DNA of 64,000 bases from an uncultured Rivularia sp. GTDB taxonomy: Bacteria; Cyanobacteriota; Cyanobacteriia; Cyanobacteriales; Nostocaceae. Shown here piece by piece: positions 1 through 47,100 of the stretch. The first letter of the stretch is position 1. Each line of letters begins with the position of its first letter. The position numbers and the translations under genes are program-made. Below the pieces are notes generated by a model that was given only the letters and a program-made list of their open reading frames with translations, had not been told where the DNA came from and did no database searches. The DNA is taken from contig OY762007.1 of NCBI GenBank assembly GCA_963665115.1, forward strand, positions 1,728,001 to 1,792,000. The letters are read 5' to 3'.

Positions 1-2410
1 AATACTTAACTCGCATTTTCGGATTAGATGAACCGTTAGTCCATAAAGTAATTTCTTGCGTTTGTGGATTCCAGCTTACTGTATTTAACTTCCCTGCTAC
101 CGTTGTTTTATCCTGAGTTGAAAGAAAAGCATGAATAATTGGTGCAACTTCCAATGTACGATTAGCTTGAACTTGTTGTACTAATAAAAACTTATTTTCG
201 GAAGGCTCATTTTGTTGGATTATACTCCACTCTTGGGGATACTCTACCGTACTCGCATCAATTACAACTTTTGCTGCTGAAGGTGGAGCAGCGGTAATTT
301 TACCTTTGACGGTGTAACCCTGTATCAGAATATTATGAGCTTTCAATACTGCTGTAAGTTTCTCAAATGATTCGGGTTTTAATTCTCCCAACTTCTTGTC
401 TTTAATCATTGCAATTCCGATATTTGGTTTCTGAGAATTTTTACTAGGTTTAACGGAAATAGTAACAGTAGCTTGATAACTCTGTTTGTTCCAATCCACA
501 TCAGCGAAAGCTCCTGATTTTAATTTATTTACCTCGATTGAATTGCCTTTTGTTGTAGTAATAATTACCTGCTGTGCTTTTGCTAATCCTTCGGAAACTT
601 GTTCGGATGTAATAGTATTATTTAATTCTGACTCCTGTGCTGGAATTAAGTAATCCTGAAAAGCATTTTTTGAACTTTGATTTTCATAATTTAAACGACG
701 ATTATATTCGCTAAAATCATTTAATAACTCTCGTAAATGTTCCGCTTCTTTGGGCAAATTATCAGAAGCACATCGAGCAAGATTAGCTGATAAATTTGCT
801 AAAAATGTTCTTTGTTCGTTGGCAGGAATTTGACTACACTCCGATTCAATTGCAATTGCTTTCATCGCTAAGTTAGCCACAATCCCAATGTTGTCATGAG
901 CAGCTTCCAAAGCTATCTTCTCAAAACTTCCACAGTAAGCTGCTTTTTGAGGTAAAACACTTTCTGGATAACGGTTTTCTGGTTGAGTTTTGAACTGAAT
1001 TTCCTCAGTTGTGCTGGGAAAATCTTGAGCCAATGCAGTTAAAGGTTTATCACCATCGCAGTCACTATTAAGAGCCGTTGCTGTGCGACGATTGAGTTTA
1101 ATACTACCGGGATGGATTTCTTCTCCTTCTAATAAGCGATTCGTAAGTACTGCCATTACGTTGGTATTACCAACTGGGGGACGATGATATAAAACTTTCG
1201 CACCATTGGGTTTAGTGCGATCGCAAATCTCCCAATCTTTCAAGCGGTTGCAAGTCATCAGCATTGATGACTGAAATTTGATAATTCTTCCAGTAGCACA
1301 ATCTCTATATTGTTCTTGAAGATGTTCTGAAAGAAAATTAATAACCTTTGGTGTTTCGATAATTTGCAGATGTCCTTCTAAATCAGCTTTGAGAAGTTGA
1401 TACATTAATTCAGTATCGTTATCTCCAAAAGCTTCGTTAATCACATCTCCAAAATCATCCAAATCAAAATCATGTATTAGCTTACTTCCGGTTTCTCTTT
1501 TAAAATCACCTGCGAGTCTTCTTTCCACCGTTTGAATATAATCTAGTGCAACCTTACGCGGGTCATTCGCAATACTATCTAATTGTGCTAAACGCTCTTG
1601 TACCCTGGGTAAAGCATCATTTTTTGCACCTTCAGACAATCCTACCCAATACTGAGCGCCCGTTGCAGCTTCTACGGTGCGAGCATTTTCGCGATTACCA
1701 ATACCGATTGTAAGAGTGTATTCTCCCGGTTCCACTTCTGTTTGTCGATTAATTCGTATCCCGGTTTTCTCATTGTAGAGTTTATTTTTGCGTCCCTTAC
1801 CCAATTGAGATTTAGAAAGCACCAAATCATAACCGCTTCCGATACTAGAAAGATTAACTGGTGCTAAAGTACCTTTTATTGTTTGGTTAGCGTTGATTCC
1901 CTCCTGGGACTTAATAATTCCTCTTACCTGGAACTGAGCAGAAGGAATATTACCTAACTTTTCGTGCAATTTATGGTCAATCCGTCCATCTCCATCTCCC
2001 ACAAGTAACAAAGCCTGTTCTTCTGGTAAAACCCCACCACACTTCCCAGTTTCATCATCTACAATCAACACTTTAATATCTTCGACTTCAGCAAAATACT
2101 CGCATTCGCCAAATAGTAAAGAACCATATGCAGAACCGAAATGTGGCTCGTCAAAAATTTGTAACCGTAATCCTGGTTTATCGGAGAAATATAATCGGTC
2201 TTTTTTGGAAAACTGAAGATACTTATCCTGATGTTTCGTTAAATCATCCTCAGTTGAAATTCCAGGATAAACAATGCCGATACTCCACTTAACATCATTA
2301 CCATAAAGATACTCCGCAGCAGTATTTTCCAAAGTCTCGATTAAAGGTTTACCATCAACTTCGATGGGTTTACCTGTTTTGGTACAGAAATATTCTAGAG
2401 CTATTGACAT
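1..2410 (-). CDS. Single-subunit two-barrel (double-psi beta-barrel) RNA polymerase-like protein, cellular RdRP/YonO-like; 3'-partial, at least 803 aa
   Basis: Translated by hand, open from ATG 2410 (SD GAGG upstream) to the window edge. Ordered motifs: VGDGDGRI (aa ~137-144), PSAQFQVRG, IKGTL, LSKSQLGK, VLYHRPP, NSDCDGD (nt 1049-1069), DNIGIVAN. Confidence 0.85.
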   Translation of the reverse strand, partial: MSIALEYFCTKTGKPIEVDGKPLIETLENTAAEYLYGNDVKWSIGIVYPGISTEDDLTKHQDKYLQFSKKDRLYFSDKPGLRLQIFDEPHFGSAYGSLLFGECEYFAEVEDIKVLIVDDETGKCGGVLPEEQALLLVGDGDGRIDHKLHEKLGNIPSAQFQVRGIIKSQEGINANQTIKGTLAPVNLSSIGSGYDLVLSKSQLGKGRKNKLYNEKTGIRINRQTEVEPGEYTLTIGIGNRENARTVEAATGAQYWVGLSEGAKNDALPRVQERLAQLDSIANDPRKVALDYIQTVERRLAGDFKRETGSKLIHDFDLDDFGDVINEAFGDNDTELMYQLLKADLEGHLQIIETPKVINFLSEHLQEQYRDCATGRIIKFQSSMLMTCNRLKDWEICDRTKPNGAKVLYHRPPVGNTNVMAVLTNRLLEGEEIHPGSIKLNRRTATALNSDCDGDKPLTALAQDFPSTTEEIQFKTQPENRYPESVLPQKAAYCGSFEKIALEAAHDNIGIVANLAMKAIAIESECSQIPANEQRTFLANLSANLARCASDNLPKEAEHLRELLNDFSEYNRRLNYENQSSKNAFQDYLIPAQESELNNTITSEQVSEGLAKAQQVIITTTKGNSIEVNKLKSGAFADVDWNKQSYQATVTISVKPSKNSQKPNIGIAMIKDKKLGELKPESFEKLTAVLKAHNILIQGYTVKGKITAAPPSAAKVVIDASTVEYPQEWSIIQQNEPSENKFLLVQQVQANRTLEVAPIIHAFLSTQDKTTVAGKLNTVSWNPQTQEITLWTNGSSNPKMRVKY

Positions 2411-2462: not shown

Positions 2463-2802
2463 TGTAAGCAAACAATAAAGTTGTAAACTGGCAGGCATCC
2501 TAAAGCCTTGATATTACGTTGACATTTACAATTTTACTCAAAATAAAGTTGTAAACTGTTTGGGTGTAAAACTGTTGGTTAATAAGAAACCGTAAACAAT
2601 AAAGTTTATTACTGTCACATTAATTATTAGCTCAAAACCAGAAGAGTTTTTACTAAAAAACGGTTAACAAGTCTCAAAAGTTATAGTTCAAGATTCTTTC
2701 TCCAAATCAAATCCCGATTCCTATATGTGACAGTTAGTTTATGACTTTACGACCTAGTTTACGAGTTTACGTCTTAGTAATAAACTTTATTGTTTGGGTT
2801 CA
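2463..2802. mobile_element. Miniature non-autonomous Tn7-like element (both ends, no genes)
   Basis: Left end TGTAAGCAAACAATAAAGTTGTAAACT with spaced TnsB-like sites at 2470, 2538 and 2594. Right end (reverse complement) TGAACCCAAACAATAAAGTTTATTACT with three contiguous 20-bp sites at 2736-2795. No 5-bp TSD. Confidence 0.7.
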
Positions 2803-3525
2803 ATCTACGAACTTACGCTTTGTCGGTGGAGTAGCCCAAATAACACAATGTCCAGACTTTGCTTTACGTCCGTACTGGGATAAAATCACACCCAATCTTT
2901 GAGCATCTTTGACGCATTCCCCGTTGTCCAAATAACCTCTGTTCCAATCAATCAAATTTCTAGCAAATTTTCCTTCCTTAGAAATCGCCCATTTCATTGC
3001 TTCCAACTCATCCCAGGTCAAAGTACTTGATTGCACCTTTGTATATCCACCACTTATCATCCCAGCAATCCAGGGAGGCGTTAAAATTCCCATGATTGCA
3101 CCGACTCCCAGGGTGAAAAATAATAATAAACTTGCCGGAAGTACAGAAGTTAAAAGTTTTCGGCTTTCTGTAAACTGTGCTTTGCGAATCAGAGCGTGAG
3201 CGGCTCTATCAATAGCAACTTTCTGACGTAATACCGTAACTTTTTCCACTTCTTGCAAGTTGCGAGCCAAATCTTGATTCCAGGTTTCAAACAACAGTTG
3301 CAAAACGGACGGCGCATTTGTCAACATTGCTTCTAATTGTCCGGTAGCTACCAAAATTAGAAACAAAGGGTCATCTTGAGATAAACCACAGCTTACAGCA
3401 AAACTCAATACCTGCTTTTTAAACTCTTCGCTTTTACCATTTAGAGCTTCAGCCAAAAACTTATTAACTTGGTCATTTTCTTCCCGATTTGAGTTTTTAT
3501 CGCTGGGAGCAACTTCCTGTGTCAT
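2800..3525 (-). CDS. Membrane-anchored mobilisation-associated hypothetical protein (DUF6753-like, tentative)
   Basis: 241 aa, DDPLF motif, one TM segment, overlaps the stop of the upstream P-loop gene. Confidence 0.55.
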   Translation of the reverse strand: MTQEVAPSDKNSNREENDQVNKFLAEALNGKSEEFKKQVLSFAVSCGLSQDDPLFLILVATGQLEAMLTNAPSVLQLLFETWNQDLARNLQEVEKVTVLRQKVAIDRAAHALIRKAQFTESRKLLTSVLPASLLLFFTLGVGAIMGILTPPWIAGMISGGYTKVQSSTLTWDELEAMKWAISKEGKFARNLIDWNRGYLDNGECVKDAQRLGVILSQYGRKAKSGHCVIWATPPTKRKFVD

Positions 3526-4553
3526 TTAACCAATCCCGTTTCGGCGAACGCTGTATGAACTTCTGCAAGAAAATTCTTGACTCGCTGTCTCGATATCACC
3601 TTTATTTCAGGATGAGAGAGCGCACTATTAAAAGTAATCCCTAATCGATCAATCACATTTCGTTCCCAGAATGGAAACTTGGGGAAATTCATCTCTTTAA
3701 ATTTATGATTCTCTTTAGCAGTGAGAAAATCTGGCATTTCATCTACATAATCCCACTCCGAGCATAATCCCAAATTTTTCACAAATACATGAGTTACTCT
3801 ATCTCCCAAATCATTCAGAGATTTGATAAAGAAATCAACAGAATCTACACCTCCCGTACATACAAACCATTTCACAAAAGTAATTTGATATTCCTTACCT
3901 ATCTCATCCAAATCATTTGTTTTTATCCAGTCAGTCACCTTTGAATAAACTTGAGCGGGTAAATTGACAATCACTGATTTTTCAAATGCTAAATCAAAAA
4001 TGTGGTCGGCTTGATTGGCTTTTTTATCATCATCGCTAAAGAAAGCAGAATGTACGTTATCATAAATCTGAGAAATATCTTCGTTGCTTTTATCTGCATC
4101 AACAATTGCTACTTTATGCTTTATTGAAGCGCAATATTCTATTAATGCTCTACTAACAAATGACTTGCCCGCGCCTCCTTTTTCACCGTCTATGATATGA
4201 ATAGTTGTGGGAATTTTGACTAATTTTTCTTGATTGCTAGCAGTATTATTTGTGTTAGTAGGTATTGGAGCGGTAGTTACAGGTTTATCTTCATCTGTAT
4301 TTGATTGTAATAATTCTGTATGGGGTAAACTTGAATCACCCTCTAATTCTTTTGCCCAATCTTGAGCAGAAGTTTCACTAGATGAATTCATCCCATTTTT
4401 AGTATTTGAATTTTCAGGAGCAGAATATTTTTCTTGCATGGTTATAGATGTACCTTGTGAGTTATTATTTGAAGCACTAGAAAAATTAGTGTTTTTCTTT
4501 GGTCTACCTCTCTTTCTTTTTTCTGGTTGTTGATTTTCTGCTGTATCGCTCAT
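3522..4553 (-). CDS. ParA/MinD-like (MobD-like) P-loop ATPase with a disordered N-terminus
   Basis: Deviant Walker A DGEKGGAGKS, VDAD, VNLPA. Confidence 0.75.
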   Translation of the reverse strand: MSDTAENQQPEKRKRGRPKKNTNFSSASNNNSQGTSITMQEKYSAPENSNTKNGMNSSSETSAQDWAKELEGDSSLPHTELLQSNTDEDKPVTTAPIPTNTNNTASNQEKLVKIPTTIHIIDGEKGGAGKSFVSRALIEYCASIKHKVAIVDADKSNEDISQIYDNVHSAFFSDDDKKANQADHIFDLAFEKSVIVNLPAQVYSKVTDWIKTNDLDEIGKEYQITFVKWFVCTGGVDSVDFFIKSLNDLGDRVTHVFVKNLGLCSEWDYVDEMPDFLTAKENHKFKEMNFPKFPFWERNVIDRLGITFNSALSHPEIKVISRQRVKNFLAEVHTAFAETGLVK

Positions 4554-5025: not shown

Positions 5026-6160
5026 TTATGCTACCTCAGCAACCGAATTTGAACCAGACATGAAATACAAAAACATTCCATAAGCATCTGTAAGTCTCGT
5101 TCCTAATTTGTACGTATCTACAGCATCGGGAACCACAACCCCACCGTGCCAAATGCAAGGTGTAGCAGAATAACGAGAATTGAGTTCTTTCTTCAAATAA
5201 TCTGCTGTACCTCCACAAAATACTATTTCGTCAATATCGCGAGGAACTACATTGCTTAACCAGGATATTAGCGTTGCGATATAAAGATTTCTCGCTTCTT
5301 TTATTGCCGTTACCAGTGCTGCTACTTCCTCATTGCGAGCTGCAACCGTAGTGCTACGAGTTAACTTATACAAAGGGACTAGGGCTGATATCGTACCCGC
5401 TCGCAACTATAGCTCTACATAAATCAGATTCAGATAATCCACTGGTTTTAGTCATAACGGTTTCTATCATCCGCACCATACCTAAATCCGAAGTTTTACC
5501 GCTGTCTAATGCTCCCCGATAGCTTACCAAAACTGAAGCATTGCGATATCCAATCATGATTATTGCGCTTTTGCGTTGCCCAATCTCTACCCCTACTCGT
5601 TTTGAATGAAGTAGAAATACTCCCGCACCTTCTGGATAACAATTAAATCGTCCCAACTCCAGTGACATATCTCCTGAAGGGGTTTCAAAGTTTTTGAGAA
5701 GGGAGCGCAGAATATTTTCAAATTTCTTTCTGGATTCATATTCATTAGCTGGAAGCAATACACACAAATCGAATTTGAAACAATTGCTCAACTTCAGCTT
5801 TTGCGCTAAAACCCAAACACTTGCCAAAGCTTTGTATAAACCTCGTTCGTACTTAAGCTCTTTCAATCCAGCATTTGCATAAAAGCGCGATGCAGCTAAG
5901 TATCCAACCGCTGCATACTTTCCTCCAAATCCCACCCAAGCAGCATTTGTAGGTTCGCATACTCCTAAATTATTTTGTAATAAGTCATCAATAGCAGCTT
6001 TGGGTACTGCAATTACTTCCGGTTCCATAAATAAACTCCCAATTTTACCGTCAGTGCTTGTATAAATTGCTTTCAAACCGCTACCACCAATATCAGCCGC
6101 GAGAGTTAATTGAACCGGAGTACTATTTTTTTGTTCTGTTTTTCGATTATTTTTACCCAT
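5026..6160 (-). CDS. parM: ParM/StbA actin-like segregation ATPase, split by a frameshift near 5385
   Basis: ADIGGS, YPEGAG and IGYRN in 5366..6160; FCGGTA in 5026..5406; the two ORFs overlap. Confidence 0.8.
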
Positions 6161-7762: not shown

Positions 7763-9382
7763 ATGATACCGCTAGCCGTCTGTAAAATCCAGAAAATCAA
7801 AAGCTGGGGAATGCTCAAGGGTAATGAAGCTCATACCGCACGAGAAAGAGATACCCCCAATGCAAACCCAGAAGTAACCAATATACGAATTATTGGTGAT
7901 TCTTCCAATTTAGATTTAGCAACTTTAGTAAGACATGCAATCGGTTCGCAGAAAATCCGCTCAAATGCTGTTCTTGCAGTAGAAATGTTGCTCAGTGCAA
8001 GTGCTTCCTATTTCCGTCCCAATGCACCTCAAGAAGCAGGAGCTTATGACAAACAGCGTTTAGATAATTTTGTAGAAGCAACAGTTAATTGGTTACATTC
8101 TTCTTGGGAAGAACGAGTAGTTAGAGCAGAGTTACATCTTGACGAAATTACACCTCATATTCACGCTTACATTGTGCCGTTAGACGAGAGAGGTAAACTC
8201 AACTGTCGGGCATTGTTTGGTGGAAAAATTAAACTATCAGAATTGCAAGATAGTTTCGGAAGGGCTGTTGAACATCTAGGTATCTCTCGCGGGATTAAAG
8301 GCAGCAAAGCGACTTACACCACGCTCAAAAAATACTATGCTGCCGTTAATCAAGATTCCCAACTTATAAATTTAGAACGCTTTCTTCCTAAAGTTAAGAT
8401 GTCTGAATCTAGTGAGGAATACCGACAGCGAATAATTCAAATTTTGAATCCTGAGTTTGAAATAATTAATTACCAACTCAATCAACGCTCGCATTTGCTC
8501 AATAAATTTAATGAGTTAAAGCGAACTGCAACACACAGCGAAAAACTTCGCCAAGAATTAGAGTCAGAATTACAAATCCTTAAAACAACTATTAAACGTG
8601 AAGAATTGCCTTTAGGCTTGGTTGCTTACGAATTAGGGATGAATCTAGATAATCAATGGTTATCAAAAACTAACGCTATTGACTTAGTGATGCGAGTCAA
8701 TCAGTGCAAATTTGATGATGCACTTATCTGGTTGCGAGATAAATTTGGAAAGGAACAAATGCTAGCTGCGGTAACTAATCAAGTAGCTAGTAGAGCCTTG
8801 AACATTGCATATCAACATCCTACAAAAGTTTTCGTACCACCAGTACCCGATAAAAGTCTTTGGAAAGAAGTTGAGAAATATTTCCAAAACCATTATTGTA
8901 TTCCCCACAAATTGACACAAACGCTCAATCAGCGAACTTTGCTATATGCAGATAGCAATAATAATGCAGTATTCCTAGCACGAAATCTTTCTTTTGAAAT
9001 TACCGGAGCTTACCTACACTCATTAAAAACCACCGCGAATACTTTCAGTTTATATCCTGGAAGTCAACGTTCTGGTGGTTGGTTTCATCTGAGCATGGGA
9101 AGAACCTCAAATAATCCTATAACAGCAGCAATCTTAACTGCTTCACCAATTGAATCATTGTCTCTAGCAATATTAAACGCTCCTCATACAAATAGAACTC
9201 TTTATTTGTCCATTGACAAGATTCATTCAAATAGTCTTCCAGAGCAGCACATTCCTATACCTGTGCAATTTTTGAAGACTGTACCAAATGTAGCTATTGC
9301 TATCCCCGATAAAAATGTAGCAGCCATTCAAAAGCTTTTACCTCATTCAACCAAATTACAGCCAAGAAACTACTTGGAATAA
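7763..9382 (+). CDS. mobV: MobV/Pre family relaxase with C-terminal extension
   Basis: H-x-x-R near the N-terminus, TPNA, RSNAVLAVE, HLDEITPHIH HUH motif, LQD. Confidence 0.9.
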   Translation: MIPLAVCKIQKIKSWGMLKGNEAHTARERDTPNANPEVTNIRIIGDSSNLDLATLVRHAIGSQKIRSNAVLAVEMLLSASASYFRPNAPQEAGAYDKQRLDNFVEATVNWLHSSWEERVVRAELHLDEITPHIHAYIVPLDERGKLNCRALFGGKIKLSELQDSFGRAVEHLGISRGIKGSKATYTTLKKYYAAVNQDSQLINLERFLPKVKMSESSEEYRQRIIQILNPEFEIINYQLNQRSHLLNKFNELKRTATHSEKLRQELESELQILKTTIKREELPLGLVAYELGMNLDNQWLSKTNAIDLVMRVNQCKFDDALIWLRDKFGKEQMLAAVTNQVASRALNIAYQHPTKVFVPPVPDKSLWKEVEKYFQNHYCIPHKLTQTLNQRTLLYADSNNNAVFLARNLSFEITGAYLHSLKTTANTFSLYPGSQRSGGWFHLSMGRTSNNPITAAILTASPIESLSLAILNAPHTNRTLYLSIDKIHSNSLPEQHIPIPVQFLKTVPNVAIAIPDKNVAAIQKLLPHSTKLQPRNYLE

Positions 9383-15625: not shown

Positions 15626-17228
15626 TTATACCGCATCGCCCCAAAAGGAAGTAATAGCAGGGGCAAACACCGACGTATCTTCACTACTAGCAGGTTGTGA
15701 AAAATACTTAGCACGGTTGGCAATAGCCAAAATTCTATCAGTATCCCTGACATACAACGGCACCATCGAGTCCCGTTGTTCCAATAATTCATTCAAACTA
15801 ATATTCATTTTAAGCCCCTGGTGAAACAATTTGCGAGCAGCTTTCTCCACCATCCGAGCTAATTCCGCACCAGTACAGTTAACAGTATTATTCAGAATAA
15901 TCCGCCATTCCTTCTGTGTAAGCACATCACTATCCTTATAGCGCTTATCAAATCTTGCCAAATGCATCATCAAAATTTCCTTACGCTCGTAAGCTTGAGG
16001 GAATCCCACATAAAATATTTCATCAAATCTTCCCATCCTGGTTAACTCAGGTGGTAACACATCAATTCTATTGAGAGTCGCAACCACAAACACCGCAGTT
16101 TTTTTATCCTGCAACCAAGTAAGTAGAGTTCCTAAAATCTGTGTAGAATTAGTATCTTCCCCACCTGTATCTGAGGTAGAAAACAATTTATCCAACTCAT
16201 CAAAATAAAGCACTACAGGAGCGCAAGCTTCTACCCGTTTTAAAGTACGCTTCAAATACGTAGCACCACCGCTTACAAAGGCTGCGGTATCTATACTGAC
16301 AAGAGGAAAACCCAGAACAGAAGCACAGACATTTGCAGCAAGAGTTTTACCAGTTCCAGGTGGTCCCTACTAACAAACATCCCTTGGGAAGAGGAATATT
16401 CGCTTTCCTAGCTTCCGTCGAAAAATCTAGCTTCGCTTGGAGGGTGAACTTCTTGAATAAATCTAAACCGCCGAAATCAGGTACGCTTGGCTTTGAAACA
16501 AAATTCAAATTCAAAGAACGAAAACGATAAATCTTGTAAGCTAAAAGTTGTTTTAATAAGTCATGAATATTTGTTGTCTCTTCAGGACGAATAGCAATTT
16601 TTAATCCCAAGCGAATTTCTTCAATAGTCAGACCAGAAGCAGCATTTACTAGGCTCGATATATTAGTTTTGTCCGTCAAACATGGTAACTCTTTTTTGAG
16701 GTAATCAGCGATATCCTTCTCAGAAGGTAATGGATTGTATAAAGTTGGAATTAAACTAGCAAGAGTTGAGGGTATTTCAACATTATCTGTGGTCAAAATG
16801 ATTAGTTTTTTGAAGAAACTATTATTTTCAAGTTCATAGTAGATATTAATGATTTTTGATATGAGTTTATGAGAAAAAAAATTATCTTCTTTTGACGCAT
16901 CATTTCCTAAAGAGAATAGATTTTCAAAGACAAATATTCCTTCTCTTTCAGAATCCATTAAAAACTCAAAAACATCAAAAACATCTAGGTCGTGCTTGCA
17001 TAAACAACTAGAATGTATAGCTTCAAAATCTACTTTATCTTCCGAATTACAATTTACTTGTTCCATGCATCCCCAGCCAGAATTCCATAAATATACAGGA
17101 ACATTTTTTAGAGAAGCACTGTTTCTTATAATCGACCCTAAAACAGTTGCACGTTCTCTGGTTGAAGCAGTTACGTTAATTACAGGAACACCTGAATCAA
17201 TCAATACGTTTAAATAAGATAATTCCAT
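15626..17228 (-). CDS. AAA+ ATPase (Ycf46-like), frameshifted within Walker A near 16365
   Basis: DFGGLD, PKGCLLVG then PPGTGK in the shifted frame, FDELDK, ELTRMGRFDE. Confidence 0.85.
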
Positions 17229-19309: not shown

Positions 19310-20428
19310 TTAAAACACACTCGCAAGTTCTTGAGGAGAAGGTATAGTTCCGGGTTTTTCGGGTAATGGAAATAATTTTTCTGCCAATTGAACTCTTTCT
19401 AAAAACTGATTAGAACGTTCCGAATCACTTACCTTTACAGAATTATTCTGAATCAATCTTTCTCGCAGTAAGTTCCATTTACCCTCAGACCAATTCATCT
19501 GCTGAATATCAGATAAAGGAACCTTTATTTTTTGCAACAACGGAACATAAGCCTCTGTACCCCTCTGGTAAGCTGGGTTAATAATTACCGCTTTACCAGT
19601 ACCCATTTTGGCAAACTGGGCTGGTTCTAATAAATGCCTTTTCTGATGATGCTCGTTAGTACTGCGAGAACCCCCACCTTTACCCATACTGCGAGATTTG
19701 GAATTAAACTGAATTTCCATTTCTCCTAGATAATCGCTGAACAACTTGGCTGATTCCGTATCTTGGGGGTTAAATATAAACTTAGTTGCAGTTCCCCCAA
19801 AAATAGCTCTTGTTAATTCCTTACCGTAAACTTTCTCCAACTGAGCAATATTCTGATATCCTAAAATCCCTACAAACCCATCTTCCCTATTTTCATTCAG
19901 CCAATTTACTAACGCTGGCAAGTACAAAGTTGGTAATTCGTCCAAAGCCACAATCAAAGGGTCAGAACGCGGTACGGTACGCGATACATTACGAGTCACA
20001 ATCATATGTAAGATAGCCGCAATCCCTCTTTGAGCATCAGGTACATATAAGGTTCTGTTTGGTTCTTTCAACATATGTAGTTGTCTTCTGAACGTGGCTT
20101 TAGTTTTGATTAAACCAGCATCACGCCATTGTTTTTCAAGCTTAGAAGTAATGAAAGTTGGAGTACCCACATAAAGCGCTACTGAGTTTCGGATTGGCTT
20201 GGCAATCTGAAAAGTAGCTTTATGTTTAGCCTTGTTTTTCTCGCGTTTACCTCCCCAGTAACTGGTTGCTACTTTACCTTTATGATTGCGACCGGACAGG
20301 AAGTTGAAAATGGCGATCGCCAAAAAACAGCCCATAAGAATTAACCCAGATTCTGACTTCATCAAATCCGCTAATCTTTCAATCTGTAAAGTTGGTGGTG
20401 TCGTCGTTGTCTGTCGTATTGCTGTCAT
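19310..20428 (-). pseudogene. virD4: Type IV coupling protein VirD4/TraD-like with an in-frame internal deletion removing Walker A
   Basis: TM N-terminus, PDAQRGIA joined directly to AILHMIV...ALDELP, then QNIAQL and SA.LFS..LG; no GxxGxGK[ST]; only 372 aa. Confidence 0.75.
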
Positions 20429-22856: not shown

Positions 22857-23583
22857 TTCCTAATTGCATTAATCTGTTAACCAACTGTAACGAAATCCCA
22901 TTTTTGCGAGCAGCTATATTTATTTGTTCTCCTGCTCGAACTAAAACTAAAAAGTTTTTAACTCTCGGAATTAAAGGAGATTTTAAAGAAATTAAACGCT
23001 GCTGTCGTGCAACAATAAATCCCCGGCTTATTAACTGTAAATTATTGATATCTGTAGTGTTTCCGAATCTATTAGTATTAAACTCTTCTTTATCATTTGT
23101 AATCTCAATTGTGTGAAATTTGGGTGTTGCATCTCCAGGAGCTACCCTAAACATATAAACCCGTCGCTTGCTACCACCTTTGGTTACTACTGTTAATAAA
23201 CTGCTATTAGATGAAGGTAATTGTTTAAAATCTAAAGGTTTAATTCTTCGCAAATGCAATACAGTTGCACCATTATCTTCTTCACATTCTTTCCCCAATC
23301 CAGATAAACAACCGTCAACATCTAAAGAAGCAATACCAGGGTTATCTAACCATACTTTCTCTATTGTTTCACCAGTAGAAATAAATGAAATATTGACTCC
23401 ATATCCAGGAGATAATTTAATCAACGGTATTGCGCTTTTACTATTTCCAGTTGCAACTGTACTGCTTATTCGCTTGACACTAAAATTTATTTCACCAGCG
23501 ATTACTTTCATTGAAATATTAGTAGAGATAATTAAGGTGAATATAGAAATTACCGCAGCTTTATTTATGATATTTTTCATCAC
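22831..23583 (-). CDS. T4SS periplasmic component (VirB9-like by position)
   Basis: Signal peptide, PGYGVNISF and KVWLD; follows virB10. Confidence 0.5.
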   Translation of the reverse strand: MMKNIINKAAVISIFTLIISTNISMKVIAGEINFSVKRISSTVATGNSKSAIPLIKLSPGYGVNISFISTGETIEKVWLDNPGIASLDVDGCLSGLGKECEEDNGATVLHLRRIKPLDFKQLPSSNSSLLTVVTKGGSKRRVYMFRVAPGDATPKFHTIEITNDKEEFNTNRFGNTTDINNLQLISRGFIVARQQRLISLKSPLIPRVKNFLVLVRAGEQINIAARKNGISLQLVNRLMQLGNESYETYR

Positions 23584-25529
23584 TCACTAAATTGAAAAGA
23601 TTGATTTACAAATATCTGCACCTGCGTATTGACAGGAACATACCAAACCTTTTGCTGCTGTTTAATTTCCGAAATTTTTCGTTTATTGCGCTCTACTATT
23701 TGTTCGGTAAGTGGTTCAAATCCACCTTCTAAAACAGCACCTAAAATATTAGAATTACTTCGTCTAATAGAAGAAAAACTACTGTTACCACCAAAGCCAC
23801 TTGAAGTAGAAAATTGTTCGGATTTGGGTTGATTAAGTACTTTACCAACTTTTGCAAGAGAACCAACGACAAATGTTTCTGCATCCCGTGTGGCAATACC
23901 TTTACCTTTTGAACCTCGTTTTGATGCTATTAAAGGATTGCCCTTATTTCCACGAATACTGATTGCTTGTTTGGGAAGAATGTATTGCTTACCATTAATA
24001 ATAATTTGTTGCGCTTGAAGTTGTACTAACCCTGACTCTTGAATGTTTTTAATAGTCGTAACAATTTGAGTATTTTTGGGAATAGTAATAAAACCATTTT
24101 TATCTTTAAGTGGTTCGGTAGTTTGAATAATAAAGTTTTCTGGTTTATTAAAATTTTGTTGTTTATGGGTAGTATCTTCAGTTAAGCTTTTATCCCACAT
24201 CAAGGGTGTAGTTATTCTTCCAGCTACAGTAGAACCGATTCTGAAGGCAGGAGGCAGGGGGCAGGAGGCAGAAGGGTAGGAAGAAGATTTATTAATACAA
24301 GAAAATTCTGAACTATCTACTTGTCCAATTGATATATTTCTCCTTTCATTTAATATTCGAGCTTCTTCTGTATAAAGTGGTTCAGGATATACATTGCAAG
24401 ATATGGATGAGTAGCATATCCCTTTTCCTTTATTCCTCCTCCTGCCTTCTGCCATCTGCCTCCTGCCTTCTCCAACCATTAGAGGTGTAGCTGATGGTAT
24501 CGTCGTAGGTAAAACTGGCTTTTCATCTACTGTAGGCTTAACTTCCTTTTGACTTATCTGTTCGTTCTTATCTTCAGTAACAGATGTAATTTGTGCAGTA
24601 CCATAGCTTCCTAATTGATTAACAGCTAACCATTGCTGTGTCGGGTCAATTTCGGATGCTTTTTCAAGTATAGCTGGTGGAGGTGGTGGTGGTATTCTTC
24701 TTACGGGAGAAGTTATTAGTGGTGGGTTTGGTTTGATTGTAGCTTTGGGAGGAGCAGTAGGTAACGCTTTATTATTACTGTTGTACGAGCGAGCAGGATA
24801 ATTATTTTGCACTGTTCGACGAGGAATCGTTCTATAAACTGGTGTTCGACTTACAACTGGTGGTCTTTCAACTGAAGCTGTGCTTTTCCTATTCGTATTA
24901 ATGTTCGCTTCGTTCAATTTTTGTGGAGTTTGAGAATTCGTTTTCGGAATAGGTGTTTTAGTATTTTCTGATTCTGAGGAGACAGATTTAATTTTCTCTC
25001 TTTGAGTTGATAATGCTAATTCGGCTTTTAATTTCCCGTTTTCGTTTTCTATTGGTTTAGTATTTTCTTCAAAAAGTACTCTCGGTTTTTCAGCTTTTTT
25101 ATCTGAAATCAGGGGTGTAGTTCTTGGTTTACCAGAAATAATAGTATTAAGGAAAGTGGCTCCTGTACCAAAAACAATTAGTAATATAAAGCCTACTGCA
25201 CCAAACTTAGCAAAGGGATTAGTTGCAAAAGTTGGTTGAGTTTTACCATTATGTGGGTCATCAAATAATTCATGAGTATCAACTACATTATTATTTGAAT
25301 CATTAGCATCTGTATCGTTTACTTCTTGTTCGTTATTGCTTGTTGGCTCCTCTTCATCAATCGTTTCTATCTCAGTTTTAGAGACAGTATTATCTTTATT
25401 CTCAGAATCATCATAACCAAGCAATTTAGCTAAACTTTCTTCATCCCAATTAGTTGAAGATTCTTGACTTTCTTGTTGATTGTTTTCTTTGACAACATTT
25501 TCACTCGAATTTAGATTATCATTCATCAT
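23580..25529 (-). CDS. TrbI/VirB10 family protein
   Basis: Acidic N-terminus, TM segment, Pro-rich linker, C-terminal VP.NT.V.IFVN; STRR-derived inserts. Confidence 0.8.
   Translation of the reverse strand: MMNDNLNSSENVVKENNQQESQESSTNWDEESLAKLLGYDDSENKDNTVSKTEIETIDEEEPTSNNEQEVNDTDANDSNNNVVDTHELFDDPHNGKTQPTFATNPFAKFGAVGFILLIVFGTGATFLNTIISGKPRTTPLISDKKAEKPRVLFEENTKPIENENGKLKAELALSTQREKIKSVSSESENTKTPIPKTNSQTPQKLNEANINTNRKSTASVERPPVVSRTPVYRTIPRRTVQNNYPARSYNSNNKALPTAPPKATIKPNPPLITSPVRRIPPPPPPAILEKASEIDPTQQWLAVNQLGSYGTAQITSVTEDKNEQISQKEVKPTVDEKPVLPTTIPSATPLMVGEGRRQMAEGRRRNKGKGICYSSISCNVYPEPLYTEEARILNERRNISIGQVDSSEFSCINKSSSYPSASCPLPPAFRIGSTVAGRITTPLMWDKSLTEDTTHKQQNFNKPENFIIQTTEPLKDKNGFITIPKNTQIVTTIKNIQESGLVQLQAQQIIINGKQYILPKQAISIRGNKGNPLIASKRGSKGKGIATRDAETFVVGSLAKVGKVLNQPKSEQFSTSSGFGGNSSFSSIRRSNSNILGAVLEGGFEPLTEQIVERNKRKISEIKQQQKVWYVPVNTQVQIFVNQSFQFSE
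24243..24471. repeat. Inverted pair of STRR heptamer arrays, in frame inside virB10
   Basis: Encode EGRRQMAEGRR and PSASCPLPPAF. Confidence 0.8.
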
Positions 25530-28566: not shown

Positions 28567-31293
28567 TTACAGTGCAGTTACCAATTGCTTAGAAAACTCA
28601 GTCACAGCTACAAATTTATCTGAATATTTCTTCATAGCAGCAGTTCTATACTCTTGCTCTATGGGATTATTGGCTACTATTGCTAATAAATTAAATGGTG
28701 GATAATAACGAGTACCTGTAAAAATCCCGTTATCATCTAATAACCATTGAGAATAAAATCCTTCCTTTTTTGGAAAAAAGCTTTCTGTTGCATTACAAGC
28801 AATTATCGATTGCGGATATTTCAATATCGAAATGAAACTATCTACAGCGTTGGGTTGAATACGTCCTATAAGTCGTGTAGTTAAATTCTGAAATATCTTT
28901 GCTCCTGATGGAGACTGAGCAATACTTTCTGGGTCTTGGGCTGATAATATTACTCTTATTCCTGCTTTTGCTCCATTTGCACAAAGTCTTCCAACTAAAG
29001 CTGCAATTGAGTCATATTCAAATAAGATGGGACTTTCATCAATAAAGAACACGCTTGCTTTCTCTGACAATGCTCGCCGCAATGCAGCACTGTAAGCACT
29101 CAAACTTAAGATTGCAGCATCGTCATCGTTGGAAAGGTTACGCAATGCGAAAATCAGCAGTCGCGCATCGCTACGAAAGGTGGAAGGTTGAGCTAGGGAT
29201 TGTCCAACTTTTGAGGAAAGCCAGAATCGCAAACGCAATAAAATTGTTTCTAATGCGGCTTTAGTATCACCACTCATCGAATCTAATCGCAGTCTTTCGT
29301 GGGAGCAATAACTTAAAAAGTCATGCAGGGTAGGCATTGTAGACCATTCAGGGGAACCAAAGCCGTTCACGTATGCAGCAGCATATCTATCGCGTATCAA
29401 ATCATCTTCAAAGAAAGCTTTGAGTCCTAATGCCAAGATAGAACGCACGGTATCGGTTAATGTTTGCGACTCTGCACTACTAGAACCCCGACGGCTACCT
29501 ACAATCATTGTTAGTAAAGCAGTTGCAAGGAAATCTTTGTAATCGGAAAACCTTTCTTGCTGCAATTTGGGTGGAAGGGAACGTAAGTTGGGTAGTTCAA
29601 ATAAATTACTTGATTCCTTACCGATATCGAAGTAAGCTCCATCGTCACCCATAAATTTAGTGTAATCTGTGAAAGTGCTTGTCCCATCAGGTTTTGGGTA
29701 GTCCATCGCTACCACGGGCATTCCATGAGCTAAAGCTTGGGTTATAATACCTGATGCCAATACGCTTTTTCCGGCGCGGGTGGTAGCAAATAATCCTAAA
29801 TTCTTATGTTGAGTGTACAAGTTTAGAAATACTGGCGTTCCCCCCGCAGAAGCAATCAATTCAAAACCGTCATCATCACCTTTTCTTGTCCTGACTAAAG
29901 GCAAAAGTCCCGGCACTTCTCCACTCAGGTAAACCAGTCTTCGATTAAAGGGAACTGTCATTAAACGTTCCCAGGTGATAGGTAGAGTTTGCAACCAAAT
30001 TCGCCAGGGATATTCGGTTTCTCTTACTACCCATGCGGGACGAAGAAAACTTGATTGTAAGTAACGACAAGCCTCATCTAATTGTTCGCGGGTATCTCGA
30101 TAAACCAAAAATACTACCGCAGTATGAATGGGGACGGCTCCTTCGTAAAGTTCTGACTGCGCGTCGATTGATTTTTTGATATTAAGTAGAGATTTTACGT
30201 CAACCGAATTCTTTTGTTGAGCAATCGCAGCACTTGTATTTGACTGTTTCGTAAGACGCTGCATATTGGTTTTCACCAATGTTTCATTCGCACGCATCAA
30301 TTGACAGTAAATTTCGGTGTCGTAAATTCTTTCCTTCGATAACACGGACCATAGATACTGCATTTGTCGTTCTTTATCAGTCCAACCACCGGGTTTTTCT
30401 ACAAAGGTAAGCGCCCCTATATATTTTCCTTTTAGATGCACCCAGCGTTTGTCTGCCACAGGAATAGAAGAATCGGATTCCATTAACAGAGATTTGGGGG
30501 CAATATCTGAGTAAATTTCTTCATGTAATCCGTCAGAGTTGAGAACTAAAAGTTGGGGGATTGGGCGCGGTGGTGTGTCATTAAAACGTTGCCATAAAAT
30601 TGTCCAAAGTTCTTCTGCACTCAGTGGACGAATATTCAAACCCATTTTATTGGAAAGCAACTGCTCCCAAAGTTGGTAGCCATCGGTAAAAGATGAATAT
30701 AGTAAGCGCTCAATCCGAACAAATTGTAATTCGTTAATTTCCCCAGTGAATGACTTCCATAAACGCTCTAACTTTGAAAGCCCTTTTTCTATCGCATCGC
30801 TTGCACCGTTAGTATCTTGTTCGATTGTGTAGGTGCAATACAAACGTAGAATTTTGGGTTTACGGATGCCCTTTTGTGTTAATTGTTTGATGCGAGCGCG
30901 TTCGCCCATCAAAAGGTATTGTAATTCTAGGTTTGGGGCGTTATTGCTTAAGTTTTTTAGTTGTTGCTGTCGATTCGTATCGTTGGTAAATGAACTTAAA
31001 TGAATTGTCAGACGTTCCCCGGATGGTAAATCTTTCAACCCCGATTCAATTGCATCAAATACTGGAGATATTTGTTCGCTACGTAATGTTGAATGAATCC
31101 CCCCGCACTCGAAGCCGAAGTGAATCATAAAATTGTTGGCACCTTTTCTCAAAACGTAGGCTCCAACAGAGCGTCCTTGCAGGTTTATCTGCAACATTGA
31201 TACTAAGGATAAAGCATCTTCTAACGGTGTTAAACGAATTTTATCTGTACCGTTATCAACTATCCGTTTACCTACTTTTGATTGAACGCTCAT
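28567..31293 (-). CDS. virB4: VirB4-like conjugation ATPase
   Basis: 908 aa, Walker A ATTRAGKS, Walker B FFIDES, SAQ motif; follows pilin and VirB3-like genes. Confidence 0.85.
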   Translation of the reverse strand: MSVQSKVGKRIVDNGTDKIRLTPLEDALSLVSMLQINLQGRSVGAYVLRKGANNFMIHFGFECGGIHSTLRSEQISPVFDAIESGLKDLPSGERLTIHLSSFTNDTNRQQQLKNLSNNAPNLELQYLLMGERARIKQLTQKGIRKPKILRLYCTYTIEQDTNGASDAIEKGLSKLERLWKSFTGEINELQFVRIERLLYSSFTDGYQLWEQLLSNKMGLNIRPLSAEELWTILWQRFNDTPPRPIPQLLVLNSDGLHEEIYSDIAPKSLLMESDSSIPVADKRWVHLKGKYIGALTFVEKPGGWTDKERQMQYLWSVLSKERIYDTEIYCQLMRANETLVKTNMQRLTKQSNTSAAIAQQKNSVDVKSLLNIKKSIDAQSELYEGAVPIHTAVVFLVYRDTREQLDEACRYLQSSFLRPAWVVRETEYPWRIWLQTLPITWERLMTVPFNRRLVYLSGEVPGLLPLVRTRKGDDDGFELIASAGGTPVFLNLYTQHKNLGLFATTRAGKSVLASGIITQALAHGMPVVAMDYPKPDGTSTFTDYTKFMGDDGAYFDIGKESSNLFELPNLRSLPPKLQQERFSDYKDFLATALLTMIVGSRRGSSSAESQTLTDTVRSILALGLKAFFEDDLIRDRYAAAYVNGFGSPEWSTMPTLHDFLSYCSHERLRLDSMSGDTKAALETILLRLRFWLSSKVGQSLAQPSTFRSDARLLIFALRNLSNDDDAAILSLSAYSAALRRALSEKASVFFIDESPILFEYDSIAALVGRLCANGAKAGIRVILSAQDPESIAQSPSGAKIFQNLTTRLIGRIQPNAVDSFISILKYPQSIIACNATESFFPKKEGFYSQWLLDDNGIFTGTRYYPPFNLLAIVANNPIEQEYRTAAMKKYSDKFVAVTEFSKQLVTAL

Positions 31294-38243: not shown

Positions 38244-39380
38244 TTAAGGAGCAGGTGGTCTACCTGTTCTATTAATTAATGTTTCATAAACTTTTAGGTA
38301 TGTTGCTTCATCAATCCAAGCTCGATATGTCTTGCAATGGGTGGTAACTGAATGTCCCATCAATTTTGCTCCAAAGTCGGGAGTGAATCCAAATTCAAAG
38401 CATCTACGTGCATAGCAGTGACGTAAATTATATGGGGGAAATGGAATTTTGAAATCGTAGAAAAATCCAGATACCTTGGTTCCAAGTTTGGCATTGGGGG
38501 AATCTTCGATTGATTTCAAATTGGGTAAGACGATTTCTTTAAGATTCCAATTGTGTGCCCATTCCAGATACAACGGATAAATAAATCGCTCTCCTGTTTT
38601 GGTTTCATCGCTAACTCGTGCAGTGGGAAAATCTAGCATATCAACATGAAATGCTTCATGGGGACGCAAACCGTATGCCGCACACATCCCGTATATCCAC
38701 TGCCAACCGGGGCTGGTAATTCTGTCTCGCCATTGAACTATCTGCTCGTCTGTTGGTAAACTTCTTGGCGATACTGTTCCAGGTGAATAACTACCAGTCA
38801 GTTCTTTGATTGCTTCTAAATTTTCAAGCTTGGCGAATTTAGCTAGTCTACCCAAAATGTCACATACTCTTTTACGACTTCGCGTATCGGGTTCGGTAAG
38901 ACTTGCGAATTCGATTATCAAATCGATAGAAAGTTCTGCATCCGAGGCAAATTCGGCGAATTTTGGAAAAACAACTTGATAATCTTTCTTCCAGGTTGTT
39001 TCGGTTTGCTGGTTGCGCGATCGCCTTCTCCAATATTCGGTTTCAAACTTTTCTACCCAATCCGATACGGTTTCGGGTTTGGGCGATTGACTTAATTGCC
39101 ATTGTTCCCAACTAAATTGACATTTATCAAGTTCTACTCTTAAAGCACGAGCTTGTTGCTCTGCATACTGTAATCCTGCAATGGTAGCTTTAACTCCTTG
39201 AGGATTTTCTTTTGTTCTCAAAGAAAGCTTCTGCTGGTAGGGTTTAGTTTTACCCGAATTTGGCTTTGGTGGAAGCGTTCCTCTTAACCATAAGGTTCCT
39301 CCACGCTTCTCAATGCTGATGCCAGTATTTGAAGCCTTCAATCTACCATTTGCTTGAGCAAGACGATTATTAATGTCCAT
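38244..39380 (-). CDS. Tyrosine site-specific integrase (cyanobacterial type)
   Basis: YGLRPHE, KTG, NLRH..A.R, LMGHS...H..Y catalytic set. Confidence 0.95.
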   Translation of the reverse strand: MDINNRLAQANGRLKASNTGISIEKRGGTLWLRGTLPPKPNSGKTKPYQQKLSLRTKENPQGVKATIAGLQYAEQQARALRVELDKCQFSWEQWQLSQSPKPETVSDWVEKFETEYWRRRSRNQQTETTWKKDYQVVFPKFAEFASDAELSIDLIIEFASLTEPDTRSRKRVCDILGRLAKFAKLENLEAIKELTGSYSPGTVSPRSLPTDEQIVQWRDRITSPGWQWIYGMCAAYGLRPHEAFHVDMLDFPTARVSDETKTGERFIYPLYLEWAHNWNLKEIVLPNLKSIEDSPNAKLGTKVSGFFYDFKIPFPPYNLRHCYARRCFEFGFTPDFGAKLMGHSVTTHCKTYRAWIDEATYLKVYETLINRTGRPPAP

Positions 39381-39528: not shown

Positions 39529-39632
39529 GTGGGTTGATTCTACCCCATTTGACCTAAAATGGTACAAACGAAGAATCCACTCCTGGAAGCTAGAAGGCGC
39601 TTGGGGAGGGGGAAACAACGGAATATAAACAA

Positions 39633-39704
<72 letters not shown>

Positions 39705-45469: not shown

Positions 45470-45533
45470 TAACTATGGAGACGTTGTTTTATACAGCGTC
45501 TCCAAATTGCAATGTTAGAAAAGGGTAAAAATT

Positions 45534-46500: not shown

Positions 46501-46608
46501 TTCTCCATAGTTTTTAATTTTTCTGACTTGAGAGCCTACTAAATTCAATGTCCGTAGTTGAAATTTCTCTGCGGGCATTTTTTTGGAAAATTATTTTGAG
46601 GATAAATT

Positions 46609-46884
46609 ATGCTACCTACAATTTTTTGTGCTTTCTGTGCGTGGACAATAGTTATTTTAGGCATTGCTAGTTTTTGGTTGATGCTAAATAAAGGAACAAA
46701 TCACCTCAAAAAGCTACATGATATTCCTTGTTCTGACTGTGATTTTTTTACCAATGATTACCGTCTCAAATGTACGATTCATCCGGAACAAGCTTGTTCG
46801 GAAGAAGCTATCGGCTGTATTGATTTTGAGGTGAAAACCGCTAATTGCAATAGTTGTCAAAAAGGTAAGCGTAAATTATATTAA
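46609..46884 (+). CDS. Small Cys-rich membrane protein
   Basis: TM segment then HDIPC..C.FF....LKC..HP..C....C. Confidence 0.7.
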   Translation: MLPTIFCAFCAWTIVILGIASFWLMLNKGTNHLKKLHDIPCSDCDFFTNDYRLKCTIHPEQACSEEAIGCIDFEVKTANCNSCQKGKRKLY

Positions 46885-47059
46885 GCTGCGACAGCCCTTA
46901 AGTTAGGCGATCGCATTTACTTTCGCTCTGTGCTAATCCTACAAACCGGGCGTTGTGACTGCTGCACAAGATATCTCTAATTCCAAAAGCAACGGATTCG
47001 CAATTCATATATTTACAAAACTTCACAAAATCGAGGATACATATTTTCAAAATATTGAT

Positions 47060-47100
47060 ATGCTAAAAAATAATTATTGCAAGTAATAATCATTAACTTA
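47060..47100. promoter_or_regulatory. Candidate Fur-type operator upstream of isiB
   Basis: AATAATTATTGCAAGTAATAATCATT, AT-rich ATAAT repeats in an iron locus. Confidence 0.35.

Follow-up and report, generated by a model that had tools for sequence, protein, structure and literature searches.

The closest systems described so far are the RdRP-like, or YonO-like, proteins of cyanobacteria, which were noted in silico by Ruprich-Robert and Thuriaux in 2010 and which, in the accessible part of that paper (PMC2919709), are set apart as a family separate from YonO; the same text defines the two-barrel superfamily by eight invariant active-site residues. YonO-like proteins of selfish elements appear in Aravind et al. 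2012, citing Iyer and Aravind, and a primase role is proposed in the portion of that article available (PMC3417536), and the available portion of PMC5512222 contains nothing on the cyanobacterial RdRP-like family. The original prediction for the present locus had pointed to bioinformatic reports of related proteins on cyanobacterial mobile DNA, for which no functional test was known; the papers of 2010 and 2012 are such reports, and a functional test of the family was not found in the literature searched. Amongst the eukaryotic enzymes, QDE-1 accepts single-stranded DNA templates, and its residues V1115, D1116 and K1119 bind NTP, their importance having been confirmed by mutagenesis according to the accessible text of PMC9508822.

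The gene described here belongs to this known family and is very probably a broken allele. It lies at the left end of the window, by which we mean the whole stretch of 64,000 nucleotides that was analysed, and encodes an internally deleted two-barrel RdRP-like polymerase on the minus strand, starting with an ATG at 2410 and remaining open to the window edge (1..2410, 803 codons), with its stop 173 bp further to the left in the genome (1727828-1730410) and a total length of 860 aa (P0001). The long frame had been proposed to hold seven motifs in a set order and all seven are there in that order, namely GDGDGRI (residues 138-144), PSAQFQVRG (156-164), KGTL (179-182), LSKSQLGK (198-205), YHRPP (408-412), NSDCDGD (448-454) and DNIGIVAN (506-513). 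The first barrel motifs D139, Q161, R163 and K179 (1874..1996, minus strand) are equated by motif order with QDE-1 D709, Q736, R738 and K743, the second double-psi barrel (residues 375-470; 1001..1288, minus strand) contains R410-x-P412 and D450-C-D452-G-D454 (DCDGD at 1049-1063), and a predicted bridge helix follows at residues 496-527 (830..925, minus strand) with an invariant G509. The expectation that the DCDGD aspartates are conserved in homologues holds throughout, since none of the 94 relatives in the alignment departs from D450, D452 and D454, nor from G453. P0001 has all eight two-barrel active-site residues (D139, R163, K179, R410, P412, D450, D452 and D454), and these are all kept in 85 of the 85 rows with letters at every position, 9 of the 94 rows having been put aside for gaps and the QDE-1 numbering being mapped by motif order.

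The two-barrel, RdRP-like fold that had been proposed is found in the predicted models, which contain both double-psi barrels and have QDE-1 and RDR2 as their first matches, both for P0001 and for an intact relative. The AlphaFold model of P0001 has a pLDDT of 78, with residues 1-575 mainly above 80 and QDE-1 (2j7n) as the top Foldseek match at E 2.1e-11, and the N-terminal 615 residues can probably still fold. The model of the intact relative (pLDDT 87.6) aligns with RDR2 7w84 over 595 residues (Z 18.2, rmsd 5.3, model range 2-934), with gp62 of phage P74 over 513 (Z 17.2, rmsd 4.7) and with QDE-1 7y7p over 594 (Z 16.0, rmsd 5.5), and residues 378-461 match isolated DPBB domains (Z 8.4, rmsd 1.9, 77 aligned). 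In the predicted fold the modelled helices at 496-527 around G509 make up the predicted bridge helix. Sequence searches gave a sparser picture: P0001 had no match in Pfam or NCBIfam, PF05183 (cut-off 23.8 bits) matched neither P0001 nor the 1259-aa relative P0003 and found nothing in the genome, the PDB search with P0001 as single query returned capsid matches only, which are ascribed to chance, and in the PDB profile search the RNA polymerase beta-prime matches near the DxDGD loop were non-significant (E 2.2 and 3.4).

Amongst 1.84 billion representatives 215 relatives were found at E<=0.001, and it is because of these relatives, their invariant aspartates and the first matches of both models to QDE-1 and RDR2 that the motif-bearing ORF cannot be put down to chance. 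P0001 is almost certainly a member of the cyanobacterial RdRP/YonO-like family, a kinship judged by core motifs and the mobile DNA setting, with the papers of 2010 and 2012 compared by description. The family is matched in 116 of 200 genomes of the same taxonomic family and in 81 plasmid records, for which the top genera are cyanobacterial, and the named relatives are annotated as "hypothetical protein". A homologue lies on a plasmid of Nostoc sp. PCC 7120 (NC_003276.1, 195129-198563). Of the 39 relatives searched, four match PF05183 at E<=0.007, and one of these (P0167) passes the 23.8-bit cut-off with a match of 24.4 bits at 356-590 that spans from before DFDGD through EVDSPKS (579-585). Pfam fusion domains occur in 8 of 24 long relatives: RNase H-like in two, Prim-Pol with PriCT_2 in one, an AAA_30 helicase in one, cpYpsA in three and NADAR in one.

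A length of 1259 aa is found in relatives that share 88-93% identity, and against G141 and G178 the gene in the window lacks 1197 bp, or 399 codons, in frame. The junction is at 569..570 (minus strand) with about 1 nt of microhomology, and what is lost corresponds to about residues 616-1014 of the relative, containing the trigger loop with K635, head-like helices and beta units 1 and 2, and including about 320 residues, or roughly one third, of the polymerase module. This accounts for the missing downstream AVDxxK motif, the absence of which had been remarked upon from the start along with the suggestion of divergence or an internal deletion. The region is retained in 137 of the 139 proteins long enough for testing, which rules out an intein or insertion in the relatives, and is missing only in P0001 and in P0154 (667 aa, possibly truncated); a 91%-identical relative, G141 and G178 are all undeleted. 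A repeat-mediated deletion is ruled out, the junction having no repeat. There is very little doubt that the deletion is real, as the junction is spanned, at depths of 59, 216 and 203, by contigs assembled independently in runs X1-X3, which come from a single study and may include the source of the assembly. It is extremely improbable that the gene is full-length in the strain and was shortened only by faulty assembly: run X2 does contain a contig of depth 2.2 with the long allele, and several genes in the assembly are frameshifted, but the junction is bridged in all three runs and has no repeat, and 8 of 85 letters are different in the minor long contig, which has one variant in common with the relative run X10, a carrier of the long allele.

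Relatives have three repeated beta units, two of which P0001 has lost; the third (residues 616-710; 281..565, minus strand) is retained, with the junction falling at its start, and shows a weak resemblance to HIRAN. The likeness of the beta units to HIRAN (PF08797) has an Atlas score of 0.82-0.83, and hhalign against 17 HIRAN sequences gave a probability of 6.5% and E 0.006 for the best unit. Pfam found no HIRAN in the polymerase genes, one HIRAN sequence set against the polymerase profile gave nothing, and the whole-model structure search, which barely probes this part, listed no HIRAN chain, so that a HIRAN identity is a lead only. The C-terminal module (residues 740-846), the start of which lies at 1..193 (minus strand), is common to the ends of the otherwise unrelated P0139 and P0178; an export signal is at most a candidate role for it, as five genomes searched held no other gene that matched and Atlas gave no match.

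The placing of the gene on a conjugative element has stood up well, since it lies on an element of 126,145 bp integrated at a tRNA-Cys (39633-39704; feature 39610..39704, minus strand), where an att core at 39610-39677 recurs, with 67 of 68 positions identical and its orientation unchanged, at genome 1641533-1641600. The genes given with coordinates below are on the minus strand except the relaxase. Directly upstream of the polymerase gene is a DUF6753 gene (2800..3525), a position that it also has in those relatives and sister elements that were inspected, followed by a TraL/ParA-like ATPase (3522..4553) with weak matches under the curated NCBIfam cut-offs and an actin-like (ParM/FcmB-like) gene (5026..6160) that is split by a frameshift here and a single ORF in G178. 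A MobV-family relaxase is encoded on the plus strand (7763..9382; NF041497, 152 bits, cut-off 100), and the transfer genes include a TrbI/VirB10-like protein (23580..25529, under the Pfam cut-off) and a VirB4-like ATPase (28567..31293, weak NCBIfam matches, E 7e-9). The gene at 38244..39380, with no Pfam or NCBIfam match, probably encodes a tyrosine integrase, judged by R-H-R-H-Y motifs. A motif-called integrase, att direct repeats at the tRNA 3' end, relaxase and VirB4 are present as in an ICE; the coupling protein is not intact, as the VirD4/TraG gene (19310..20428, junction near 20022) has lost about 230 codons in frame and with them its Walker A, a deletion that, like the transfer-operon frameshifts, is read from the assembly. 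In relatives the VirD4 genes are split by frameshifts. Mobility has probably been lost, and the element is probably in decay. It also carries RT-Cas1 and CRISPR-associated genes, and two undeleted polymerase paralogues sit on sister elements in the same genome. Across the family, 45 of 73 loci lie within 50 kb of a VirB4 match (22 of 28 on replicons >500 kb), the remaining 28 of 73 being further away or on contigs lacking VirB4.

The deleted segment includes K635 of the predicted trigger loop, a lysine present in all 94 of 94 relatives in the alignment and assigned by motif, spacing and aligned ranges rather than by residue-level superposition; it would correspond to the NTP-binding lysine of QDE-1 (K1119) and RDR2 (K923). 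The clade of P0001 has EGQSGK where the others have AVDxxK (4 of 94 rows). In the accessible text of PMC3737540, deletion of the archaeal trigger loop left no promoter-initiated product and merely slowed elongation, about 30-fold. A fragment of P23-45 gp96 that ends at 1050 is inactive and 327-1124 is active, without the clamp C-terminal region; residue 653 of the intact-relative model aligns with gp96 1077. Because the trigger-loop region and the accompanying part of the module are gone, and VirD4 has no Walker A, P0001 is probably inactive or badly impaired, and for this copy the proposal of a working polymerase supplied by the ICE itself is not supported. We think it very likely that P0001 is crippled as a polymerase: de novo RNA initiation would fail, and the loss would be tolerated because VirD4 is also broken and the resident element imposes no selection on the gene.

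Substitutions do not betray this decay. Over residues 1-605 dN/dS is 0.09 on the window branch and 0.11 and 0.12 in relatives, which is purifying selection alike, and relaxed selection is not seen there; over residues 622-860 the values are 0.32 against 0.18 and 0.15, from small counts. Since the decay is invisible in substitutions and the frame and core residues are kept, a recent loss fits, with loss of function itself unproven. The preserved frame and core residues, the well-modelled N-terminal part, the junction at a unit boundary and the low dN/dS would also suit a shortened protein that is a working or repurposed variant under selection, be it a polymerase that works slowly without its trigger loop, an enzyme that extends primers, a protein that binds nucleic acid or one with a dominant-negative effect. 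This is nevertheless very unlikely, given that the deletion is nearly unique (P0154 apart, the sole case among the testable proteins), that the 91%-identical relative, G141 and G178 keep the segment, that one third of random deletions would be in frame anyway and that another in-frame deletion has hit VirD4, also on this element. A joint explanation, with a trigger-less crippled allele on a probably immobile ICE and an intact family that primes or transcribes transferred single-stranded DNA, seems reasonably probable to us. P0001 would serve as a natural deletion control and should not be assayed as wild type.

For the intact members, it is quite possible, and we propose it tentatively, that the single strand being transferred is their template, for RNA primers or for early transcripts. 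In the 1259-aa family Mg and NTP would be bound by the two barrels, a template of single-stranded DNA would be aligned by the bridge helix, and the [AE]VDxxK trigger loop would hold the NTP about to be added, on the pattern of QDE-1. During transfer the strand generated by the relaxase would then receive RNA primers from which the second strand is synthesised, or be read into early transcripts. The tie to VirB4 and the fusions with RNase H-like, Prim-Pol and helicase domains count in favour of work on single strands, whilst one relative already has an AEP primase, making a second one potentially redundant, and YonO, which of the bacterial-phage relatives named in the group is the only one tested, transcribes double-stranded late genes (PMC5467207, available text). 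Whether the intact members are YonO-like transcriptases of double-stranded DNA, serving the transfer operon of an element on which P0001 is broken, has to be weighed here: that article describes YonO in its available part as a processive DNA-dependent RNA polymerase for SPbeta late genes, phage non-virion P74 gp62 is the second-best structural match, and at the window locus the gene points the same way as the transfer genes. We regard this as unlikely, since the gene lies at the extreme 3' end of the run of transfer genes, its strand relative to VirB4 varies among family loci, the fusions suggest work on RNA-DNA hybrids or replication, and a promoter scan around the gene found no excess (10 sites against 11.7 expected). 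True RNA-dependent RNA polymerases making dsRNA for element regulation or defence are a highly improbable alternative; the best structural matches are eukaryotic RdRPs, a few relatives match Pfam RdRP, RNA-mediated regulation is raised in the accessible part of PMC2919709 and the element has RT-Cas1 and CRISPR-associated genes, but an RNAi partner was absent from the 64 ORFs scanned, QDE-1 itself copies DNA too, and the genes regularly found nearby are those for relaxase and T4SS. Returning to priming or early transcription on the transferred strand, a bolder form is somewhat unlikely, in which the RNAi-type polymerase would be a standing part of the transfer module, accompanying the single strand made by the relaxase or acting upon it, gripping DNA ends via three tandem HIRAN-like units, and either priming the second strand or transcribing leading-region genes such as ardA. 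If true, conjugative primases would have a third chemistry, and the ancestor of eukaryotic RdRPs would have a living model in this family, with the window allele as a natural trigger-less null.

P0001 itself, a deleted allele of a family in print since 2010, carries little weight; the family carries more, being common in related genomes and tracking mobile T4SS clusters. What the locus adds is a mapped predicted trigger-loop lysine, three repeated beta units and a natural deletion control. With the cyanobacterial RdRP-like/YonO-like family it has in common the cyanobacterial host, a single chain, the eight invariant two-barrel residues, the mobile-element setting and RNase H fusions in relatives, and it differs in lacking the trigger-loop region and 399 residues. 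YonO of the Bacillus prophage SPbeta is alike in having a single chain with two barrels and an aspartate triad and in being encoded on mobile DNA (PMC5467207, available text), but transcription of phage late genes is shown for YonO, to which the present protein is likened by description. The enzymes of Thermus phages (P74-26 gp62/P23-45 gp64, and gp96) and of crAss-like phi14:2 (gp66) have the single-chain two-barrel fold, with Z of 17.2, 12.9 and 9.0 to the intact relative, yet they are early-gene transcriptases with no link to a relaxase or T4SS. The eukaryotic QDE-1 of Neurospora and RDR2 of maize and Arabidopsis (PF05183) resemble the family in predicted architecture over about 595 aligned residues and in the order of DPBB1, DPBB2, bridge helix and trigger loop; they differ in an identity of 10-14%, in having no reported counterpart of the three tandem beta units and variable tail, and in their RNAi context, which is absent here, and P0001 has in addition no PF05183 match and a deleted trigger loop. 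Among the matches obtained here, the family is, in its modelled structure, the closest bacterial counterpart of the eukaryotic RNAi polymerases.

The minus-strand open frame beginning at 2410 stays open, as predicted, through 803 codons until the window ends, and on the single 8.69 Mb contig to which the window (C1:1728001-1792000) belongs it reaches a stop codon 173 bp past that edge, giving a protein of 860 aa with all seven (7/7) of the predicted motifs in the predicted order. Neither Pfam nor NCBIfam gives this protein a family name. A word-indexed search listed 41 matches, itself included, and a search of 1.84 billion representatives gave 215 relatives with E<=0.001, the named ones being hypothetical proteins of filamentous cyanobacteria; with a full-length relative as query 116 of a sample of 200 same-family genomes and 81 plasmid records match. 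The same genome carries two undeleted paralogues (ORFs of 1277 and 1264 aa, ~30% identical, DFDGD intact), each of which closes a homologous T4SS-MobV-DUF6753 block, as well as a further copy that is frameshifted. Upstream of the polymerase start lies a 17-bp direct repeat (window 2474-2490 and 2542-2558, partial copy 2594-2606), which may serve as an operator or belong to a nicking region.

The family is already known, as the original prediction had it: PMC2919709 distinguishes five families, gives the cyanobacterial YonO-like proteins one of them and terms the role of these proteins an enigma, and PMC3417536 places them on selfish elements, records fusions to RNase H and suggests that they act as primases. 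No experimental test of the family was found in the literature searched, most subscription journals lying outside its coverage, in agreement with the first reading. What is new is this member, itself very probably broken.

The model of the window copy (67 sequences in the alignment, pLDDT 78, pTM 0.67) has QDE-1 (E 2.1e-11) and RDR2 as its top Foldseek matches, then Thermus phage and crAss-like RNAPs. An intact model, residues 1-1150 of the undeleted relative from the related genome G178 (94 sequences, pLDDT 87.6, pTM 0.85), ranked maize RDR2 first (E 7e-12), and in a wide structural search it matched RDR2 (Z 18.2, rmsd 5.3, 595 aligned), P74 gp62 (Z 17.2, rmsd 4.7, 513 aligned) and QDE-1 (Z 16.0, rmsd 5.5, 594 aligned); as each match reaches residue ~935, the polymerase module is placed at residues 1 to ~935. 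Both predicted structures therefore point foremost to QDE-1 and RDR2, as the proposed RdRP-like fold would have it. The eight residues that section 8 of PMC2919709 terms invariant in two-barrel polymerases, equated by motif order with D139, R163, K179, R410, P412, D450, D452 and D454, are all in the window copy and in 85/85 rows with letters at all eight (9/94 rows with gaps set aside), so that the DCDGD aspartates are conserved as claimed; only six columns, K635, D450, D452, G453, D454 and G509, are invariant in all 94 rows.

The full-length proteins that are 88-93% identical to the window copy have 1259 aa, and DNA comparison with G178 and a second related genome, G141, places in the window copy an in-frame gap of 1197 bp with about one base of microhomology. 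The internal deletion suspected from the missing AVDxxK motif is thus real, removing residues ~616-1014 including K635. The junction is spanned by contigs of sequencing runs X1 (depth 59), X2 (depth 216) and X3 (depth 203); in run X10, from a relative at ~91-95% identity, the sequence parts from that of the window at 569/570 and continues as the long allele, and an X2 contig at depth 2.2 is the long allele too but differs in 8/85 letters. As all four runs share a single study, and the assembly may derive from X1, the contigs show a deletion in the DNA of this one strain. Among 187 proteins, 139 contain the second barrel followed by 300 residues or more, and 137 of these keep the deleted region, the exceptions being the window copy and the relative P0154.

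To judge from sequence, the stretch around K635 is a putative trigger loop. The family motif [AE][VAG][DQ]xxK[SN] has the spacing of QDE-1 V1115-D1116-x-x-K1119, which according to section 19 of PMC9508822 binds the incoming NTP; bioRxiv 2021.08.31.458351 gives RDR2 K923 and phi14:2 K1615 for the same position, and in the relative P0167 the Pfam RdRP match extends across the trigger-loop-like motif. Of three homologous beta units in the intact protein (residues 748-862, 928-1012 and 1010-1120; hhalign 95.3% for 1 vs 3, 97.5% for 2 vs 3, 47.9% for 1 vs 2) the window copy retains the third alone. The units weakly resemble HIRAN (Atlas 0.82-0.83; hhalign 6.5% probability for unit 2), the top scores among 22 sliding windows being the two that overlap unit 2.

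Because the putative loop, its base helix and ~320 residues of the polymerase module are absent, the window copy is very probably crippled and unable to initiate. According to PMC3737540, an archaeal RNAP without its trigger loop loses promoter-initiated product, elongation being only ~30-fold slower; according to bioRxiv 2022.12.01.518664, a gp96 fragment ending at 1050 is inactive and 327-1124 active. In the structural alignment, gp96 1077 is paired with residue 653 of the intact model. As a counterpoint, the same preprint has gp96 active without its C-terminal clamp region. The prediction that the ICE encodes its own polymerase hence stands for a two-barrel polymerase gene on the integrated element, and in all likelihood fails for this copy as a working enzyme. 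Over residues 1-605 (22 ambiguous codons excluded) the window branch has 12 nonsynonymous and 37 synonymous changes, a ratio of 0.09 against 0.11 for G178 and 0.12 for G141, so no relaxed selection is seen in these codon counts, which would fit a recent deletion in a gene previously under selection.

The conjugative setting was correctly recognised, with an att repeat at tRNA-Cys (window 39633-39704) and VirB4-like, VirD4 and MobV genes. A 68-bp stretch over the 3' part of this tRNA gene has a 67/68 copy in the same orientation at genome 1641533-1641600, the two enclosing an element of 126,145 bp. The ORF adjoining tRNA-Cys bears what we take to be tyrosine-recombinase motifs, and has no match in Pfam or NCBIfam; the interval from this ORF to the polymerase contains DnaB-like, VirB4-like, TrbI-like, VirD4, MobV, actin-like, TraL/ParA-like and DUF6753 genes, a block found with an undeleted polymerase in G178 and G141. 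In the assembly, VirD4 has AQRGI joined to AAILHM, with ~230 residues gone including GAAGSGKT. Beyond the polymerase are ardA and a split RecD2-like gene.

Many genes are split (window 5026-6160, 15626-17228, 32663-33839, 33880-35184, 44423-48923 and 53675-54716; L001:6199-8282, on a nearby stretch), of actin-like, AAA ATPase, dnaB, PSII-antenna-like, ABC ATPase and RecD2 kinds, and as relatives are split at other places some splits may be long-read indel errors. The element also holds CRISPR cargo (L002:14078-19592 and L003:13405-20000, two stretches at genome ~1685400-1711600) with adjacent separate RT and Cas1, a Cas2-like ORF, WYL and Csx3-AAA genes, and further genes that by eye are RAMP-like. 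At L002:2210-4055 a ThiF/E1-like gene (weak E1-E2 matches) and a small ORF, E2-like by eye, are possibly a bacterial ubiquitin-like system, and DUF499/HmaC ATPase, DUF1156/HmaB methylase and PLD-SNF2 helicase genes at L003:992-10751 (genome 1672989-1682751) suggest an Hma-like or restriction-like defence cluster. An inverted 48-bp third copy of the tRNA-Cys 3' part (genome 1620132-1620179) and a second dnaB-like gene just beyond the far att site (1638301-1641600) look like remnants of tandem elements at tRNA-Cys. The sister element of the 1264-aa paralogue occupies a tRNA-Phe site (5882103-6013003; 61/62 repeat ~131 kb apart), with a further inverted 45-bp copy at 6144457-6144501. An array of 11 tRNA genes lies at 2710034-2711354.

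Synteny with VirB4 was surveyed in 43 genomes of at most 20 contigs taken from the 200-genome sample, 36 with a polymerase match and 7 without (88 polymerase rows merged into 73 loci; 122 VirB4 rows). A VirB4 match lies within 50 kb of 45/73 loci and on the same contig for 70/73, related genomes being non-independent and closeness on small plasmids partly trivial; at positions beyond 500 kb the figure is 22/28 within 50 kb. By VirB4 identity class, a polymerase lies within 50 kb for 19/27 at 70% or more, 6/23 at 54-57%, 20/34 at 43% or less and 0/38 at 58-62%. The last class, about one per genome in most of the genomes surveyed, is probably a resident T4SS gene; this genome's resident-type VirB4 (~60% identity class) is at 7648448-7651186.

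Throughout the elements examined the polymerase gene stays beside the relaxase block. Pfam domains occur in 8/24 long or close relatives scanned: cpYpsA (3), RNase H-like (2), Prim-Pol with PriCT_2 (1), AAA_30 helicase (1) and NADAR (1). In the relative P0120 the Prim-Pol and PriCT_2 primase is N-terminal to the two-barrel module in one fused protein. The main rival for the intact members, a YonO-like transcriptase of the transfer operon, has its precedent in YonO itself, a transcriptase according to PMC5467207. QDE-1 uses ssDNA templates and initiates de novo, the fused domains have to do with RNA-DNA hybrids and with replication, and the relaxase block is the gene's constant neighbour in the elements examined. 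On these grounds we favour a role on ssDNA, it being quite possible, if a little short of probable, that intact members act on the transferred strand, where synthesis during transfer would yield primers or early transcripts. Within the family the Asp of the putative trigger loop is itself replaced by Gln in a clade of relatives (P0002-P0004, P0008, P0009 and P0053; EGQSGK, EVQSGK or EVQSEK, 7/94 rows), whereas Pol II has Asn at that trigger-loop position.
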